Shown one piece after another: positions 3,326-59,012 of a stretch of 64,000 nt of DNA. Origin of the DNA: a candidate division CPR3 bacterium 4484_211 (lineage in GTDB: Bacteria; Patescibacteriota; 4484-211); NCBI GenBank assembly GCA_002084955.1, contig MZGJ01000004.1, forward strand, positions 3,155-67,154. The letters are read 5' to 3'. The notes below the pieces were generated by a model that saw only the letters and a list, made by a program, of their open reading frames with translations, was not told the origin of the DNA and made no database searches. The translations under genes were made by a program, and so were the position numbers. Positions within the stretch are counted from its first letter, which is position 1, and the number at the start of each line of letters is the position of its first letter.

Positions 3326-6300
3326 ATGGTTGACCTATCTAAAGTGAAAGATGGCTTGTTAAATAAAGGATTGCGGTCGACTGCATTGCTAAAGGGCTCG
3401 AAGAGAAAATTTCTCTATTTAGGTGCCATCCTTTTTGTTCTTGTAATTTTTTTAATTCCCATAAGAAGAAAGTTTTTGATTAATCGTTTAGCCGAATGGA
3501 GAGGGTTGGGGGCAGGGAATCTGGTACCCAACTCTTCGTTTGAAAAAGGATCTGGGGGAATGCCCGAAGGCTGGAGGCGGGTGTCGGGAAGTGTTCAAGG
3601 GGTGTTTGATGATAGGGGTGAAGTTTTGCAGGCGGCGGCTGCTAATTTTACCCGTAATGATGAAACCGCTGTAATGTACGGGACACATGAAATTGCCTTG
3701 GTTGGTGACGGGTCGTATGATGTTGACAATCTCTTTGCTCTTGACGTTGAAGTGTCCTTTACCGCTCCCTCCGGTCTTATTAAAACAGTGGCTGCTTTTT
3801 ATGATGGTGATGATAATTGGCGGGCGCGGGTTTATGTTGATGAAACTGGTACTTGGTCTTGGAGTTCCTCGTCATCGGAGGGCAGTCTTAACGGGGAGGG
3901 AGGAAATTTCTTTGCTCAATCATCGAATTTGCGGGGTATGCTCAGGAAGCATAGTCAAAATTCAAGGCAATTGGTAACCGATGATGGACAAACGTTTATT
4001 AATGTTGCTGATACTGCTTATTTCTTTTTTACGCCGTCGGAAACAGATTGGAGGGAGTATTTACGTCAGGATGCGGATCATGGTATTACCTCGATTAGGA
4101 GTGACGCCTTGGGCGGAGGTTTAAGTTGGGATATGTATTGGACTGATGATTCAAGGACTCAGTTTGATCTACCTAATTTCCAGAATATGGACGAGAGAGT
4201 TCAGTGGTTGCTTGATAATTATCCGGATATTCAGGTGCAGGTGAAATTATTGCCAGGTCCCAGCAGTTACGGGGCTGATGAGGCTGTTTGGCCGACGTTA
4301 CCCCAATCGGTTCGCGAGAATCTGTTGAGTTATATGATTAGTCGCTGGGCAGCTTATCCCAATCTTTTTTTTGAGGTGACCAATGACACTCGATGTTCTT
4401 CTGCCTATCCAAATACCCGCAGTATGGCAGATGAAGTTGGTAATTACTTTCTTGCTCATGACCCTTGGCGACACCTGATATCGTTTGGCCCCACACGCGA
4501 TGCAGAGTTCTGTTTTACTGAGGCTGATTGGGTGGGTTATATCGCTTTAGAGACATCCTACGATTTGTCAGCCGACTGGGTTGATAACTACATTTCGGAG
4601 CCGTTGCATGTTTTTAGTGAAGAAGATTATTATGAAACCTACAATACACCTCTTCATCCACGGTATTTCTATAGAAGGTTAGTTTGGTCTTGGTTGCTTT
4701 CTGGCGGTTCTGCTACCTATGGCGGCGATTGGGACACCCTAACTCCTTATTCACAGTCAGATCTATCTGGGATGGATTCTTTTCCTTATATTGTTTCTTA
4801 TTTCCGAGAACGGGGGATAGATCTGGCTTTGTTTACGCCTGATGATAGTTTGGCCGCGCAGATTAATGCGCCTTCTCCGGAGGGGAATAGCGGGCCAAGC
4901 AGAGCTCAGGTAGCTCGGCGTGAATATGATGAGTTTCTTATTTATGTCCCCAATTCGGAGGATGGTGAGGTGTCCGGTTTTTTGGAGGGAACAAGGTCTA
5001 GTGCGGAGAGGAGTCGGCAGGAAGCGGCACTTAATACGGATGTTACGCCCGAGATTCAGTTAGATCTACGGAGTGCCTTGGGGGAATTTACGGTAGAATG
5101 GTATCGTCCCTATGATGGCTTGGTGCAAACTGGCGGAGTGGTTAATGGCGGTGATTACCGTCAGCTTACTTCTCCGTGGCGGGGGTATGATGTAGTTGTT
5201 AGATTGGTTTTAAGTGCTTCTGCTACTCCTACGCCGATACCTACCCCCTCCCCCTCCCCTACTCCGGCTCCTTCTTGTGAATTTACCTGGCCGGCGCAGC
5301 CGGCGCATAGTGGAGATAGTGCCGTTAGGATTCATGGGAATAGCAGTAGTGCAGATTGCCGAATGGAGATGATAGAGGCAGTAGAAGTATCCCCGAGCAG
5401 CTGGTACGATTTTGGGGGATGGATTAGGACAATAGGCCTTTCGGGAGAAGCGCGCTATCGGTTGATTTTTTATTCGGATGAGGCGGGAGAGAATGAGATG
5501 GGTTTTGCAGACACGCAGGGGATAAGCGGGACAACAGAAAATCCGGATGAAAACGGGTATGTTGAGGCAAGCCGGAGTGTTATGCCTCCAGGGAGTGCGC
5601 GGTCGGTGCGGGTGCAGGCTGTCCTAAATGGCTCGGGGACGGCCTGGTTTGATGATGTCTGGTTAAATCAGGTAGGTGGTCCAACCCCATCACCGACTCC
5701 ATTTTTGTCATCGACGCCTAGCCCCACCCCAACTCCTCCCGAGTGTACCTATGAGGTCAGCAGCAATGCAGAGCTTGCCAGTGCCAACAGTGCTGTACAG
5801 GCGGGAGAAGTGGTTTGTTTGCATGAGGGTTCATATTCTACACCGATTGAACCCCTAAATTCAGGTTCGTCCGGGTACTATATTACCTATCGCTCCTTTA
5901 CTGGGGAAGAGCCAGTTGTTACCGCACGGTCGCATCTGGATGATAAAAGCTATTTGGTAATTAGCGGTATCAGTCTTGCTTCTGATGGTCATACTTGGTT
6001 AAGCACCAATGCCAATTCTCACCATGTAGAGATAATCAACTGCAGTTTTGATTCCTCGGAGGGGGGGAGTTGGAATGGGATTTATCTTTACTATTCGGAG
6101 TACATTACCCTGCGAGGGTGTAAGTTTGGCAGCTGGTGGTATGGTAATGCGATTACGGTCAGTGGGGGCTCGCATATTTTAATTGAAGGCAACGATTTTT
6201 CTCAGGCGGCGGCTGATCATGGATTGGTGATTCTCGGGGCTTCCCATTCGGTTATTCGCAACAACTATTTTCGCAATCCCTGGGATCGGGCTATTTCGGC

Positions 6301-12437: not shown

Positions 12438-12627
12438 AATTGCACAGTTGCATAGTTGAACTCTTAAATGCTTCAGCTATGGCCGCATTTGCTTTTGGGT
12501 TTGATTGCAGCAGCAGATTCTTGCCGTGTGCCGAATGGTACTGCGGCTAGTCCGCAATCTTAAGCGCGCAGTAGGCCTGTAATTCAGTGATTAAAATAGG
12601 AGCCGCTTCTTGAAAAGGGCGAATTCG

Positions 12628-28591: not shown

Positions 28592-28879
28592 TTATCTTGG
28601 TAGTTTGGTTAATCCTTGCTCCACTGCTCTGGCGATGATACCAATAAGGTTTCCGATAATCGGAATATCGCCGTAAAGGCTAAAGGCGTAGGCTATGATT
28701 CCAACTAAGACGGTGGCTCCCATTACCGTACCGAAACCCCAAGCCAGGCCGCCAATGAAGTTATTTCTAAAAATAAGTGAAAGAGGGATTTTGGCTCTTG
28801 CTTCGGCAATTTCTTCGTGGAAAACGTTTAATGCTTTCTTTTTCGGTTGATTGTTTTCCAAATTAACCATATTACCCAT
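28592..28879 (-). CDS. Hypothetical small membrane protein
   Basis: 95 aa with two TM segments (FIGGLAWGFGTVMGATVLVGIIAYAF; IIGNLIGIIA). The start codon overlaps a REP copy. Confidence 0.35.
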   Translation of the reverse strand: MGNMVNLENNQPKKKALNVFHEEIAEARAKIPLSLIFRNNFIGGLAWGFGTVMGATVLVGIIAYAFSLYGDIPIIGNLIGIIARAVEQGLTKLPR

Positions 28880-28899
28880 GAAGTACCCGGTACTTCATG
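28877..28899. repeat. REP copy A (full palindrome CATGAAGTACC-C-GGTACTTCATG)
   Basis: 11-bp perfect arms. Overlaps the ATG of the 28592..28879 gene and lies 100 nt from tRNA-Val. Confidence 0.8.
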
Positions 28900-28998
28900 T
28901 CGCTCTTGTTGCAACCAAAACCGGGTTGCTGTCTCCTGCGGCCTGCCTCGACTCGGGTTGCTTCTTGAAGAGAGTGTGGGGCGGCTGCCCAATATACC

Positions 28999-31392: not shown

Positions 31393-31556
31393 GGCGCTTT
31401 TAATTATAGAAGTTGGGAGGTCTTTATCAACTTCTGTCAGTCTCGAACTTTTTTTGCCCCTCAGCTTTGTTGTTGGAACTATTATTTTTGGTTAAGGGTG
31501 GGATTGGTGAGTTTACCCAGACGATTTGGGCGACTGGCCAGATGGCTGATATGAAG

Positions 31557-31579
31557 GCCTCATGAAGTACCGGGTACTG
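31557..31579 (+). repeat. REP copy B (GCCTCATGAAGTACCGGGTACTG); extended identity from 31542; adjacent internal duplication GGGTACTGCTC x2
   Basis: Exact 23-mer; supplies the ATG of the 31562 ORF (MKYRVLLGY...). Confidence 0.8.
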
Positions 31580-32428
31580 CTCGGGTACTGCTCCTGTTGC
31601 ATATTGGACAGCTGTTTGTTATACTTCGCGTTAATGTCAATCCCACAAGTTTCCTCAAGGAATACCAAAAACGAAATTTTGGCTGCTTATCAACAGTTAC
31701 GGGATATGGTAAGCCAGCGGAAGGAGACTCCGGCGGTGTCATTTCGCGGGAAGATTATTGCCCAGGTGGAGAAAATAGAAGCGAGCTTGGCGGCTAAGCA
31801 GGCCGAGGTAGGTGAATTAGAAGAAAGAATTGCACAGTTAAAGCAGGAGTTGCAACTGGGCGAGAGGATGAAGTTGACTCGGGAGCAGTTGGAAAAGTTG
31901 CAGGAAAAGATTGCCCAAGAAGAGCAGCGGTGGCAAAGACAGCGCCGCCAGTTGGAAGAAGAGCTGAAGGATGTGAGGTTGTGGAATGAGAAGCAATGGG
32001 AAAAAGAACTGGGGCAGAAACGGTGGGAATTGGAAATGGAGGAAAAGAAGAGAATGAGGATTCTTGAGGAAAAGGAAAAACTCTTCGGGCAGAAGGCGGC
32101 AGATTATAAGCAGTTAAAAGAGCAGGTAAAGTCTTTTCCTGAGCGGTTAGAGAAAGCGGCTAAAGATGGTATTTCGGAAGGTTTGGCGTCTGCAAGAGAA
32201 GAATTTGAGGTGGAGAAAAAGAGCATGAGGCAGCAGTTTGAATCGGAAAAGCAACTTTTAAATCAACAGATTGAAAATTTAGAAAACCGCCTGCAGGAAG
32301 AGAAGGAGGCAAAGAAGAGACTGGAACAGCAGTTGGCTTTGGCTTCTCAGCAGATTAAGCAACTGGCAGTGGCGGCACTGGAAAATAAAACATCTAAAGT
32401 TCAAGAAACAACTCCCAAGACTGCATAA
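31562..32428 (+). CDS. Hypothetical coiled-coil protein (E/K/Q/L-rich)
   Basis: 288 aa; heptad-like EELKxxLEE repeats throughout, no enzymatic motifs. Bracketed by direct REP copies. Confidence 0.4.
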   Translation: MKYRVLLGYCSCCILDSCLLYFALMSIPQVSSRNTKNEILAAYQQLRDMVSQRKETPAVSFRGKIIAQVEKIEASLAAKQAEVGELEERIAQLKQELQLGERMKLTREQLEKLQEKIAQEEQRWQRQRRQLEEELKDVRLWNEKQWEKELGQKRWELEMEEKKRMRILEEKEKLFGQKAADYKQLKEQVKSFPERLEKAAKDGISEGLASAREEFEVEKKSMRQQFESEKQLLNQQIENLENRLQEEKEAKKRLEQQLALASQQIKQLAVAALENKTSKVQETTPKTA

Positions 32429-32684
32429 GAATTCTTCTCGTCTAAGTTACTAGAGTTTTGTGGATCCTACTAGTTTCCTTTGTAGAAGTTAGTTTGAGCT
32501 CCGCTGGTGTCCTTTGGGTAATTTTTTGTTGAAAAAGGGCTTCTGTTCGGGTGGAATTGTTTAGAGAACTTGATTAGGAAAGTGGCTCAAATGGCGAGCC
32601 AACGAATTTTTCGCTTGAATAATTGGGATTATTGCTCTGGTAAATGGGTAAATTTAGTTTGATTCCACTATGGCTGATATGAAA

Positions 32685-32707
32685 GCCTCATGAAGTACCG
32701 GGTACTG
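32685..32707 (+). repeat. REP copy C (exact 23-mer); extended identity from 32670 (ATGGCTGATATGAAAGCC...)
   Basis: 37/38 nt identical to 31542..31579. Confidence 0.8.
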
Positions 32708-41076: not shown

Positions 41077-41291
41077 TATCCTTCACCCCCTTCTTAATGA
41101 TCCCGATATCGCATCGGGAGAACTAGAGCCTGCCTGCTGCCATGACGGCGACACAACTTCGCTAAGCTCTAAAGGCTGAGACGGCTCAGTGGGCATACTA
41201 AAAGCGATCTAAGATAACTTTAATTTAATCCTATTCTAGCTTCTTATTTTTGTCAATGGCAATTGGAGGACGTGTTAAGTGCTGGAGCGGC

Positions 41292-41367
41292 GGAGGGGTC
41301 TCGAACCCCCGACCTTTTGCTTGGCAAGCAAATGTTCTGCCAACTGAACTACCGCCGCAAGCTACTA
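41292..41367 (-). tRNA. tRNA-Gly (anticodon GCC), CCA encoded
   Basis: GCGGCGGUAGUUCAGUUGGCAGAACAUUUGCUUGCCAAGCAAAAGGUCGGGGGUUCGAGACCCCUCCGCCGCUCCA. Confidence 0.85.
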
Positions 41368-41395
41368 ATTTATTATACCAGACTTGGTGGGTTCG

Positions 41396-41472
41396 GTAGG
41401 GCTTGAACCTACGACCTTCTGGGTGTAAACCAGACGCTCTAGCCAGCTGAGCTACGAACCCTATAACATTGT
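41396..41472 (-). tRNA. tRNA-Val (anticodon UAC), CCA encoded
   Basis: GGGUUCGUAGCUCAGCUGGCUAGAGCGUCUGGUUUACACCCAGAAGGUCGUAGGUUCAAGCCCUACCGAACCCACCA. Confidence 0.85.
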
Positions 41473-41530
41473 TGCTGATTGGCAAGAATTGTACCAAAAA
41501 ATTGGCTTGTGGTAAAATAAATCGGTAAGT

Positions 41531-41602
41531 GCTCCGTTAGCTCAGTGGTAGAGCAGTGGTCTCTTAAACCATTGGTCGTAGGTTCGAATCCTACACGGAG
41601 CA
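41531..41602 (+). tRNA. tRNA-Lys (anticodon CUU), 3' CCA not encoded
   Basis: GCUCCGUUAGCUCAGUGGUAGAGCAGUGGUCUCUUAAACCAUUGGUCGUAGGUUCGAAUCCUACACGGAGCA followed by CUUCCA. Confidence 0.8.
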
Positions 41603-41610
41603 CTTCCAAA

Positions 41611-41634
41611 CAGTACCCGGTACTTCATGAGGCC
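41611..41634 (-). repeat. REP copy D (reverse orientation), 5' flank of the RAYT gene
   Basis: CAGTACCCGGTACTTCATGAGGCC is the exact reverse complement of the REP consensus. 9 nt after tRNA-Lys, 20 nt before the RAYT start. Confidence 0.8.
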
Positions 41635-41654: not shown

Positions 41655-42422
41655 ATGGCGCGACAGTTGGGTCTTTACACGGATAATTTTTATCATATTT
41701 TTAACAGGGGAGCGTTAAAACGGGAGATTTTTTTGGATGATGGGGATTATTTTAGGTGGGTTAAGTTGATGTACTGGTGTTTACGCTACAATTATTCCCT
41801 TAGTAAATTTCTAAGTCGAGTTGATTTCATGCGCAGGACTGGCGAGGATTCTGGTCAGGTGGAGAAGGAAATCGCCAAATTCTATTCATTACCTCAGAGA
41901 CCTGTTGAGATGATTGCTTGGGTTTTAATGCCCAATCACTTTCACCTTGTGCTAAAGCAGCTTGTGGAGGCAGGCATTTCTAGTTTTATGCATCGCCTTA
42001 CCAGTTCGTATTCTCATTATTTTAATCGCAAATATGAAGGGACAGGGACTCTTTTCCAGGGTCGGTTTCGGGCCGTTCTTGTTGATACGGAGGAACAGTT
42101 CTTGCACCTTTGTCGATACGTTCATATTAATCCGTTATCGGCCGGGCTAGCAAGCAGGCAGACTTTGCCAGACTACTCTTGGTCTTCTTTCCGGTATTAT
42201 ATGATGGGAAAAGATGACTTGGTAACTACGAGAGAATATCTTGAGAGTTATTTTCCTTCGATACGTTTGTTAGGGGAATTTACCTTGGCGGGTTCTGTTA
42301 ATCAAGAGGCCTATTTAATTGAAGGATTAACAATTGATGACGATTTTGGATGGTATGAAGAGAAACGCGCTTGTGAGAAAATACGGCGCGACAATTTGAT
42401 AGAGGAAGTGTTTAAGGCCTAG
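41655..42422 (+). CDS. REP-associated tyrosine transposase (RAYT; IS200/IS605 TnpA-like HuH Y1 transposase)
   Basis: YHIFNRGALKREIFLDD (N-terminal motif), HuH MPNHFHLVL, catalytic-Tyr region SYSHYFNRKYEGTGTLFQGRF, YVHINP. 255 aa, longer than IS200 TnpA, as RAYTs are. Confidence 0.7.
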   Translation: MARQLGLYTDNFYHIFNRGALKREIFLDDGDYFRWVKLMYWCLRYNYSLSKFLSRVDFMRRTGEDSGQVEKEIAKFYSLPQRPVEMIAWVLMPNHFHLVLKQLVEAGISSFMHRLTSSYSHYFNRKYEGTGTLFQGRFRAVLVDTEEQFLHLCRYVHINPLSAGLASRQTLPDYSWSSFRYYMMGKDDLVTTREYLESYFPSIRLLGEFTLAGSVNQEAYLIEGLTIDDDFGWYEEKRACEKIRRDNLIEEVFKA

Positions 42423-42432
42423 TGGCAGTGAC

Positions 42433-42451
42433 ATGAAGTGCCGGGTACTGC
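42433..42451 (+). repeat. REP copy E (direct orientation, 1 mismatch: CATGAAGTGCCGGGTACTG), 3' flank of the RAYT gene
   Basis: 11 nt after the RAYT stop; inverted relative to copy D. Confidence 0.7.
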
Positions 42452-56744: not shown

Positions 56745-59012
56745 CTATCTACTTTGTACCATACTTGCTTCCGCTTTGGCAACTAGTTGTTTAACTTTAT
56801 AAAATGCGTCCGGGTTGACCGAGATAGAAGAGATACCCCATTCGACTAATTTTTGCACAAACTCTGGATAGACGCTGGGCGCTTGGCCGCAGATGGAACA
56901 CAAAATGCGGTGTTTGCGGCATTCTTTAATTACCTTTTCAATTACCTCCATAACTGCAGGATTGGTTTCATTCAGGGTGCTTCCTAAGACGGGGTTGTCT
57001 CGGTCGGCGGCCAAGATTAGCTGGGTTAGATCGTTGGATCCAATGGAGACTCCGTCAATGCCGACGCCGATAAAACGTTCCAACAAGATGGCGCTGGCCG
57101 GCGTTTCCACCATGATAAAGAGTTTAAATGACGGAGAGCGGTAGAGGTTATTGGCGGCCAGTACTTTTTTTATTTCAATTAATTCCTCAACTGTTCTTAA
57201 GAATGGAATCATCAGCCAGAGATTTTTGTAGTATTGTCTGACTTTTTTTATCGCCTCGAGCTCCAGTTGAAAGACCTGCGGGTCTTTAATGTAGCGCAGG
57301 GCGCCGCGCATCCCCAGCATGGGGTTGGCTTCTTCTTCCTCGTATTTATCTCCGCCTTTTAGATTACGGTATTCATTAGTTTTAAAATCAGTTGTTCGGT
57401 AAATTACCGGCCGGGGTTTAAAGGACTTGGTGAAAATACGGAGTCCGTTTTCCAGTTCTTTTATAAATTGATCTTGTTTTCCCTGTTTAATTAAGTATTT
57501 TGGATGCACGCCGATGCCGGCAATCATAAACTCGGCTCTAAGCAGGCCGACTCCGTCCACCGGCAGTTTGGCAATTTCTTCAGCGCGTTCCGGCTCGGCA
57601 AGGTTCACATAAATTTTGGTTGCTGTCTTACTGGCGGCAATTTGCTCTTTATTTGTGGCAACTTGTTGATTTCCGCTTATTTGCTGCGCTAAATCTCCTG
57701 TGTAAACTACGCCGTTTTGCCCATCTATGGTGACCGTTTCTCCGGAGGCTAGAGTGTTGGTGGCGACTTCGGTTCCAACAATGCAGGGAATTCCCAATTC
57801 ACGGGAGATAATCGCCGCGTGACAGGTGGTTCCTCCCTCGTCGGTGATAATGGCCGCCGCTTTTTTCATGGCGGGAACGAAATCGGGAGTGGTCATGGTG
57901 GTGACCAGAATTTCTCCTTTACGTATTTTACTGATTTCCTTGGCGCTTTTAAGTTTTTTAACCTTGCCGCTGACCACGCCCGGGCTGGCGCCCAGACCTT
58001 TGAGGATAATTTTTTCATCAAACACCCCAAAATCAGTACCCGGTACTTCATGAGGCTTTTGTGTAAGGGTTGTCACCGGTCTGGTCTGGACAATATAAAT
58101 TTTGTTTTTCCAAATTGCCCATTCAATATCTTGAGGAAATTGGTAGTGTTTTTCCAGTGCCTTGCCGATTTTAGCCAATTCCTTAATTAGTTGATCACTG
58201 ATTTTTTGCTTCTTGCGCCAGTCCCGCGAAACGGCAACTTCACCTTTTTGGGTAATCATTTTGTCTTGAGGGACAATCTTTTTGGTTACGATCTCTAAAC
58301 TGTCTTTGTTTACCTGGTAGTGATCGGGGGTAATGCTGCCGGAAACAATGCCCTCCCCCAGCCCGTAAATGGCCTCAATGGTGATGATCTTGGGATTGTT
58401 GGAGATGGGGTCTACGGTGAATTCTATGCCGGACATTTGCGACTGGATCATTTTCTGTACGGGTACGGCTACTCCGACTTTAAAATGGTCAAATTTCTTT
58501 TGCTCGCGATAGTATATGGACCGGGCGGTAAATAAAGACGCCCAGCATTTTTTGACCGCCTCTGCCACCTGGTTGGGCCCGCTAATGTTAAGGAAGGTTT
58601 CCTGCTGGCCGGCAAAAGAAGCTTCGGGCAAGTCTTCGGCAGTGGCCGAAGAACGCACGGCTACTTTGGTTCTAGCACCGAGCTTTTTATAGGCCTGCGT
58701 AATTTCCTTTTCTATCTTGGGGGGTATCTGGGATTGGATGATAAGTAACTTGATGTTGGCGCTCGCTTTTTGAAGTGAATTGGTGTTTTCTACTTCTATG
58801 GGATTGAGGATTTCTTTTAGCTTTTGGGTGAGCTTATTTTCTTTTAAAAAATAGAAATAGGCGTTGGCGGTAACACAGAATCCTTCCGGAACGGGAAACC
58901 CGGCCTGGGTCATTTCTCCTAAATTGGCCGCTTTTCCACCGACTTCGTTAAGATCCTTTTTGTTGATTTCCTTAAACCACTTGACAAACTGCATGACAGG
59001 CGCAATCTTCAA
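56745..59012 (-). CDS. ppsA: Phosphoenolpyruvate synthase (pyruvate, water dikinase)
   Basis: N-terminal PPDK_N (VGGKAANLGEM), phospho-His domain GGTTCHAAIISRELGIPCIVG, C-terminal PEP-utilising TIM barrel; 755 aa. Contains an in-frame REP copy. Confidence 0.8.
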   Translation of the reverse strand: MKIAPVMQFVKWFKEINKKDLNEVGGKAANLGEMTQAGFPVPEGFCVTANAYFYFLKENKLTQKLKEILNPIEVENTNSLQKASANIKLLIIQSQIPPKIEKEITQAYKKLGARTKVAVRSSATAEDLPEASFAGQQETFLNISGPNQVAEAVKKCWASLFTARSIYYREQKKFDHFKVGVAVPVQKMIQSQMSGIEFTVDPISNNPKIITIEAIYGLGEGIVSGSITPDHYQVNKDSLEIVTKKIVPQDKMITQKGEVAVSRDWRKKQKISDQLIKELAKIGKALEKHYQFPQDIEWAIWKNKIYIVQTRPVTTLTQKPHEVPGTDFGVFDEKIILKGLGASPGVVSGKVKKLKSAKEISKIRKGEILVTTMTTPDFVPAMKKAAAIITDEGGTTCHAAIISRELGIPCIVGTEVATNTLASGETVTIDGQNGVVYTGDLAQQISGNQQVATNKEQIAASKTATKIYVNLAEPERAEEIAKLPVDGVGLLRAEFMIAGIGVHPKYLIKQGKQDQFIKELENGLRIFTKSFKPRPVIYRTTDFKTNEYRNLKGGDKYEEEEANPMLGMRGALRYIKDPQVFQLELEAIKKVRQYYKNLWLMIPFLRTVEELIEIKKVLAANNLYRSPSFKLFIMVETPASAILLERFIGVGIDGVSIGSNDLTQLILAADRDNPVLGSTLNETNPAVMEVIEKVIKECRKHRILCSICGQAPSVYPEFVQKLVEWGISSISVNPDAFYKVKQLVAKAEASMVQSR
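58034..58056 (-). repeat. REP copy F inside ppsA coding sequence (exact 23-mer, reverse orientation)
   Basis: CAGTACCCGGTACTTCATGAGGC on the plus strand. Read in the ppsA frame it encodes ...KPHEVPGTD... in the linker between the ATP-grasp-like N-domain and the phospho-His domain. Confidence 0.8.

Follow-up and report, generated by a model that had tools for sequence, protein, structure and literature searches.

In the 64,000-nt stretch of a CPR3 (Patescibacteria) genome analysed here, hereafter the window, a 23-nt repeat (CAGTACCCGGTACTTCATGAGGC) lies in frame within the intact gene ppsA, which encodes phosphoenolpyruvate (PEP) synthase. The repeat belongs to a family resembling the repetitive extragenic palindromes (REPs), two members of which flank, as an inverted pair, a gene for a transposase resembling the REP-associated tyrosine transposases (RAYTs). 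We propose, with a probability of about 0.7, that the ppsA copy is a member of this RAYT-associated REP-like family and is carried as a tolerated, neutral passenger in a flexible linker of PEP synthase. The gene, the linker and the copy within it are placed as follows.

56745..59012, minus strand: ppsA (PEP synthase), intact, with three domains; 755 aa, or 749 aa in the NCBI annotation
57999..58067, minus strand: DNA of the interdomain linker, residues 316-338, hypervariable among homologues
58034..58056, plus strand: exact REP copy, in frame in ppsA and read on the minus strand as (K)PHEVPGT(D)

The identity of the host gene is clear. PpsA shows the Pfam domains PPDK_N (residues 22-321), PEP-utilizers (364-434) and PEP-utilizers_C (451-748), and carries the catalytic histidine motif GGTTCHAAIISRELG, in which H398 is invariant in 30 aligned sequences. 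The NCBIfam scores are at equivalog level (NF005057, 944 bits with a cut-off of 598; TIGR01418, 906 bits with a cut-off of 740), and domains, catalytic histidine and scores together identify the protein as a PEP synthase (pyruvate, water dikinase); its sequence matches that of the PEP synthase from candidate division CPR3 bacterium 4484_211 with 100% identity. The 23-mer runs from the last base of the K319 codon to the first base of the D327 codon, being read on the coding strand as G CCT CAT GAA GTA CCG GGT ACT G and encoding KPHEVPGTD (residues 319-327). The 23-mer can be read without a stop in four of its six frames, the frame of ppsA among them.

A previous sequence-only reading of the window had described this exact 23-mer, in frame in an intact open reading frame (ORF) of 755 aa, and had placed it in a flexible linker between the nucleotide-binding and the phospho-histidine domains. 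Both statements are borne out, the second by the Pfam boundaries and by an AlphaFold2 model: the repeat follows the final strand of the nucleotide-binding domain and precedes the swivelling domain. In the model, whose mean predicted local distance difference test (pLDDT) score is 84, residues 316-331 are coil with pLDDT below 50 and form the least confident part of the protein. Among 29 homologues the linker segment is unalignable and its length is 20-32 aa. Its flanks are conserved, with VTTL and T-[DE]-x-x-x-F-D at its two ends, so that at most about 31 nt can be REP-derived.

The window contains four exact copies of the 23-mer, a variant with three mismatches and a more diverged sixth copy. 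The five copies outside ppsA and the transposase gene are located as follows.

41611..41633, plus strand: exact REP copy, left arm of the inverted pair around the RAYT-like gene
41655..42422, plus strand: RAYT-like Y1/HUH transposase gene, 255 aa, Pfam Y1_Tnp at 36.9 bits (cut-off 23)
42428..42450, minus strand: diverged REP copy CAGTACCCGGCACTTCATGTCAC, just past the RAYT stop codon, right arm of the inverted pair
31557..31579, minus strand: exact REP copy in a divergent intergenic region, with a long form reaching 31542
32685..32707, minus strand: exact REP copy in a convergent intergenic region, with a long form reaching 32670
28881..28903, plus strand: variant REP copy with 3 mismatches, intergenic, between a DUF5665 gene and tRNA-Val

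The 23-mer did not occur once in 100 dinucleotide-preserving shuffles of the window, and the 23/23 match of the ppsA copy is not a product of chance. As the linker residues of the homologues also differ, a coincidental or convergent match, the outcome by which the sequence-only reading would have been overturned, is excluded. No further degenerate copies, allowing up to 7 mismatches, were found within the window or the roughly 5 kb of flanking sequence scanned with it. The core of the repeat holds a 13-nt palindrome, AGTACC-C-GGTACT, built on GTAC, and at 23 nt it has the size of a REP, a short repeat of 20-40 nt with a palindrome able to form a hairpin. The six copies are divided three and three between the plus and minus strands, with no strand bias, and all are singlets, so that REP doublets forming hairpins (REPINs) are absent from the window. 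An Rfam scan returned tRNAs as the sole matches and placed the repeat in no family. The 23-mer gave zero matches in the public genome contig collection scanned; its 18-mer core gave 12 singletons across public genome and metagenome collections, of which only one is real. This is L004, a 1.5-kb contig of a strain 98% identical at the tRNA-Lys/REP/RAYT locus, which covers that locus only and has the 41611 copy.

Several of the copies extend beyond the core. Together with positions 28877-28880 the variant copy forms a perfect 23-nt palindrome at 28877-28899 (CATGAAGTACCCGGTACTTCATG), which folds as a DNA hairpin with a 10-bp stem (-8.3 kcal/mol, z = -3.5) and is an exception among the copies. The copies at 31542-31579 and 32670-32707, in the same orientation on the minus strand, have in common a 38-nt long form (CAGTACCCGGTACTTCATGAGGCYTTCATATCAGCCAT) with one mismatch. 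These long forms bracket a 264-aa coiled-coil ORF (31634..32428) without a Pfam match, and the pair may represent a longer variant of the repeat or a unit that has been mobilised. Beside the 31557 copy there is a partial duplication, just upstream in the orientation of the element.

The RAYT-like transposase encoded at 41655-42422 is presumably the protein that moves the repeat family. Among NCBIfam models it is matched best by REP_Tyr_transpos (REP-associated tyrosine transposase; E = 4e-17, 62.3 bits), and its only match in the PDB is E. coli TnpA_REP (4ER8, E = 7e-5). The HUH motif H95-F-H97 and the tyrosine motif R154-Y155-x-H-x-N-P160 are invariant among its relatives. The gene is bracketed by inverted arms at 41611-41629 and 42432-42450, which are 19 nt long and 95% complementary, and it thus shows the flanking by inverted repeat copies by which a RAYT gene is recognised. 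These flanking copies, with the profile and PDB matches, support the earlier suggestion of a REP-like repeat family that has a RAYT-like gene as its partner and includes the 23-mer. The 41611 copy lies 8 nt past the 3' end of tRNA-Lys and 22 nt ahead of the ATG of the transposase gene; a cluster of three tRNAs (Gly-GCC, Val-TAC and Lys-CTT, 41283-41603) stands immediately upstream of the REP/RAYT unit. The transposase falls in a clade of RAYT-like proteins of about 250 aa that have a C-terminal extension (residues 226-233 here) absent from E. coli TnpA_REP, in which the motif D228-D229-D230-x-x-W233 is invariant (consensus IDDDFGWY).

Two homologues of the transposase, with 38-39% identity and encoded on contigs of other Patescibacteria (L019 and L021), show the same layout with unrelated palindromes. 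On L019 a 37-nt perfect palindrome is found at both ends of the gene and in three dispersed intergenic copies. The 37-nt palindrome consists of two inverted units and is REPIN-like, and the RAYT homologue of this contig is inserted between the genes for ribosomal proteins L10 and L1. The palindromes are located as follows.

L019, 9929-9965: 37-nt palindrome
L019, 10762-10798: 37-nt palindrome
L019, 13421-13457: 37-nt palindrome
L019, 17179-17215: 37-nt palindrome

On L021 (JGI Ga0335114_11247318) the sequence TTAAGAGCTTCGCTCT stands at both ends of the RAYT homologue, with dispersed copies nearby, and a further copy is found at 12524, directly after the called ATG of the next gene.

The distribution of the repeat in the window is that of a REP, with copies mostly outside genes. 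Five of the six are extragenic; called genes make up 83% of the DNA, and one genic copy in six is therefore a strong deficit. The probability of finding at most one genic copy is 8e-4 for all six and 0.018 for the four that do not adjoin the RAYT gene. The statement that REPs are extragenic by definition is a matter of naming, as in-frame intragenic REPs have been documented (PMC3733652). The idea that copies of the repeat supply start codons to ORFs is not supported by the gene calls or by ORF length: in the ORF at 31562 the gene callers start 24 or 39 codons downstream of the ATG of the repeat (264 or 249 aa, not 288), and the MKYRVL ORF at 32690 is short, absent from the list of ORFs of at least 60 aa and antisense to an AstE/AspA-like gene. 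There is one real overlap with a start, the left arm of the 28877-28899 palindrome containing the called ATG of the DUF5665 gene (28879, minus strand), so that the ribosome-binding region of this gene would lie within the hairpin.

Several observations weigh against the interpretation of the ppsA copy as a passenger derived from a RAYT-associated REP. The hairpin of the core has a short stem of 5 bp and a 3-nt loop, with a stability no greater than that of shuffled sequences. The tags of the two classical REP superfamilies, GTAG and CGTC, do not occur within the conserved 23-mer, nor do CTAC and GACG; a CTAC is found right after the 41611 copy only, by happenstance. The REP_Tyr_transpos score of the transposase falls under the curated cut-off of 80 bits. 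REPs typically number more than 100 per genome, and our census, with six copies, extends over the 64-kb window and some 5 kb beside it. As to the linker, a net gain of about 8 residues is not visible, either in the alignment of the 29 homologues or in a comparison of codons with the two closest orthologues, and if 8-10 codons had simply been inserted, the ancestral linker would have had 13-15 aa, fewer than in any homologue seen. The nearest comparable PpsA is only 69% identical, and no empty-site allele was present among the compared sequences.

These points bear on the way of arrival, for which the sequence-only reading had proposed two checks. The first was an insertion of about 8 residues exactly at the position of the REP, and this is not what the homologues show: the linker has 23 aa here, within the range of the 29 homologues, and 25-28 aa in the closest relatives (69% and 64% identity). 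The nearest of these relatives is fully syntenic over about 20 kb, and in the syntenic orthologue the repeat motif is absent from ppsA and from the whole 22 kb. The second was a pair of short flanking duplications as the signature of a target site, and none is present around 58034-58056, where CAAAA and TTTTG, on either side, are inverted rather than direct repeats and make no significant addition to the folding of the element. Y1/HUH transposition makes no flanking direct repeats, so that the absence of a target duplication is uninformative either way. As neither a gain in length nor a target duplication is present, we infer, and do not observe, that the copy arrived by insertion.

We propose that single-strand transposition mediated by the RAYT-like protein may have brought the copy into the ppsA linker. 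This arrival would be recent, because the ppsA copy is identical to three others, and since no net length was gained, a comparable stretch of the old linker would have been lost at or after arrival. The copy would then be translated as PHEVPGT without a function of its own in the gene, and in an unconstrained linker it is probably harmless. Selection would purge any copy that landed in coding sequence under constraint, and the extragenic position of the other five would be accounted for in this way. A recent RAYT-mediated insertion, tolerated in a flexible linker, had been put forward from the sequence alone; its in-frame location in such a linker stands, and the insertion itself is plausible and not demonstrated. 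The copy may have come by either of two routes, transposition with loss of linker sequence or replacement of existing sequence.

Replacement without transposition would mean that about 23-30 nt of the old linker had been exchanged for REP sequence through short-patch recombination, gene conversion or template switching, with the length unchanged, and we consider this explanation unlikely. It agrees with the absence of net length gain relative to the closest orthologues, and a second case of the same kind is found on L021, where the REP of that lineage, TTAAGAGCTTCGCTCT, lies in frame within the RAYT coding sequence itself (L021:10182-10200, codons 61-67, VKSFALK; likewise L022:8373). This copy is in the most variable, gapped segment of the alignment, which is the shortest among the relatives (22 aa vs 25-28) and shows no net gain. 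However, the linker DNA of the orthologues has no similarity to the REP above chance by which recombination could be seeded (shuffle P = 0.49 and 0.89 for L024, 0.18 and 0.23 for L026). A resemblance seen by eye (CCT..GAR..ACT GA), according to which this DNA would already be REP-like, was rejected as chance over the same range (P = 0.18-0.89). Moreover, linker length varies widely, an insertion with a subsequent deletion would account for the data just as well, and the pattern rests on two cases.

The same two cases, the ppsA linker here and the variable loop of the L021 RAYT gene, lie behind a wider interpretation, which we offer tentatively and hold to be improbable as it stands: that REP/RAYT systems remain active in the very small Patescibacteria genomes and that their repeats are repeatedly taken in frame into those loops and linkers of proteins that are under the least constraint, without net change in length. 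If this were true, short mobile palindromes would feed the turnover of linker and loop sequence directly, replacing what was there and not simply being inserted.

We regard it as very unlikely that the 23-mer is a selected functional motif in ppsA, whether bound by the RAYT-like protein or a regulator, folded as an RNA structure or resembling an uptake signal. The 13-nt palindrome does have the shape of a site for a dimeric protein, the four exact copies agree at every one of the 23 nt, also in the non-palindromic tail, and several copies lie near gene starts or ends. Nevertheless, the density is low, with 6 copies per 64 kb, five of them extragenic; the even division between strands shows no bias, the copies have no shared position relative to genes, and the hairpin is neither unusually stable nor matched by an Rfam family. 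The syntenic orthologue does without the motif, and the homologous transposases are accompanied by unrelated palindromes, as expected for mobile repeats that co-evolve with them. The independent function that the sequence-only reading had raised as its second possibility, with an uptake signal as example, thus finds no support.

The sequence itself is reproducible. Three separately assembled ENA contigs (ERZ23491052, ERZ23491060 and ERZ2433807), 99.98-100% identical to the window, have the same gene with the same 23-mer; by record names, two of them represent different BioSamples and the other a third-party reassembly. The ppsA 23-mer is not an assembly error, because it is present in the three separate assemblies. 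An artefact, whether a mis-join of contigs at a shared repeat or a match by chance or convergence, could be imagined since the sequence comes from a metagenome-assembled genome, but it is effectively refuted by these contigs, apparently from at least two samples, by the match of both halves of PpsA to the same orthologue along its whole length, by the zero chance matches in 100 shuffles and by searches with the 18-mer core in two large public collections, which gave singletons and one real strain-level copy. No presence/absence polymorphism was seen, all REP sites being identical across the independent assemblies L013-L018.

Two of these assemblies, from the same population, differ outside the window. 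L013:1-3250 and L014:1-3146 diverge completely at about 1.7 kb past the window end (beyond 64000); past this breakpoint one assembly has AbiEii and FolD genes and the other a ComEA-like gene. Beside the breakpoint a pyrophosphatase gene lies between two direct repeat copies of about 200 nt with 87% identity (L013:3294-3490 and 4217-4421).

The present analysis thus documents a REP-like repeat together with a RAYT-like transposase in a CPR3 genome, within the Patescibacteria. Our search of the literature found no paper joining RAYTs or REPINs with this group, a negative that holds for that search. The ppsA copy is a clean example of a mobile palindrome surviving within the gene of an essential-type enzyme, and only in a disordered, unconstrained linker. 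There is also a lesson for annotation, as repeats called extragenic can be coding and repeats that contain an ATG create false upstream starts. The finding leaves knowledge of REP biology unchanged.

REPs within genes for known proteins were described in several species by Di Nocera, De Gregorio and Rocco (2013; PMC3733652), a minority of them in frame. These authors argued that such in-gene REPs are neutral and fall in modular or tolerant regions, and that REPs at annotated N-termini often reflect mis-annotated starts. The repeat described here resembles their GTAG and CGTC REPs in being a short, mostly intergenic palindrome, and the GTAG type also in its association with RAYT genes flanked by repeats. 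It differs in lacking either tag, its core being built on GTAC instead. Furthermore, over half of the inserts in that study were dimers adding 20-30 aa, whereas a single 23-nt unit corresponding to 8-9 aa is found here, and the host is a CPR3 member of the Patescibacteria with the repeat in ppsA, in contrast to the replication and repair genes stressed there.

The palindromic elements of Rickettsia (RPEs; Ogata et al., 2000), cited in PMC3733652 and PMC3184786, are the classical example of in-frame palindromic repeats in genes that stay functional. RPEs are about 105-146 bp long, have no dedicated RAYT and lengthen the protein by a sizeable peptide; the element here has 23 nt, or at most about 31 nt, adds no net length and is not an RPE.

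The transposase is like E. coli TnpA_REP (4ER8) in being a Y1/HUH enzyme with HUH and tyrosine motifs whose gene is flanked by inverted repeat copies, and unlike it in size (255 aa as against 165 aa), with an extra N-terminal stretch and a C-terminal extension with DDD-x-x-W; the repeat has a much shorter stem than the E. coli REP. As in the REPIN-RAYT systems of Bertels and Rainey (2011; PMC3116915), a single RAYT copy is seen, here one in the 64-kb window, and the repeats are dispersed intergenically. REPINs in that work are doublets of inverted REPs, whereas the copies in the window are singlets and those of L019 doublet-like. The ppsA copy is a new example of a documented phenomenon, the in-frame intragenic REP, in a lineage where the system had not yet been described.

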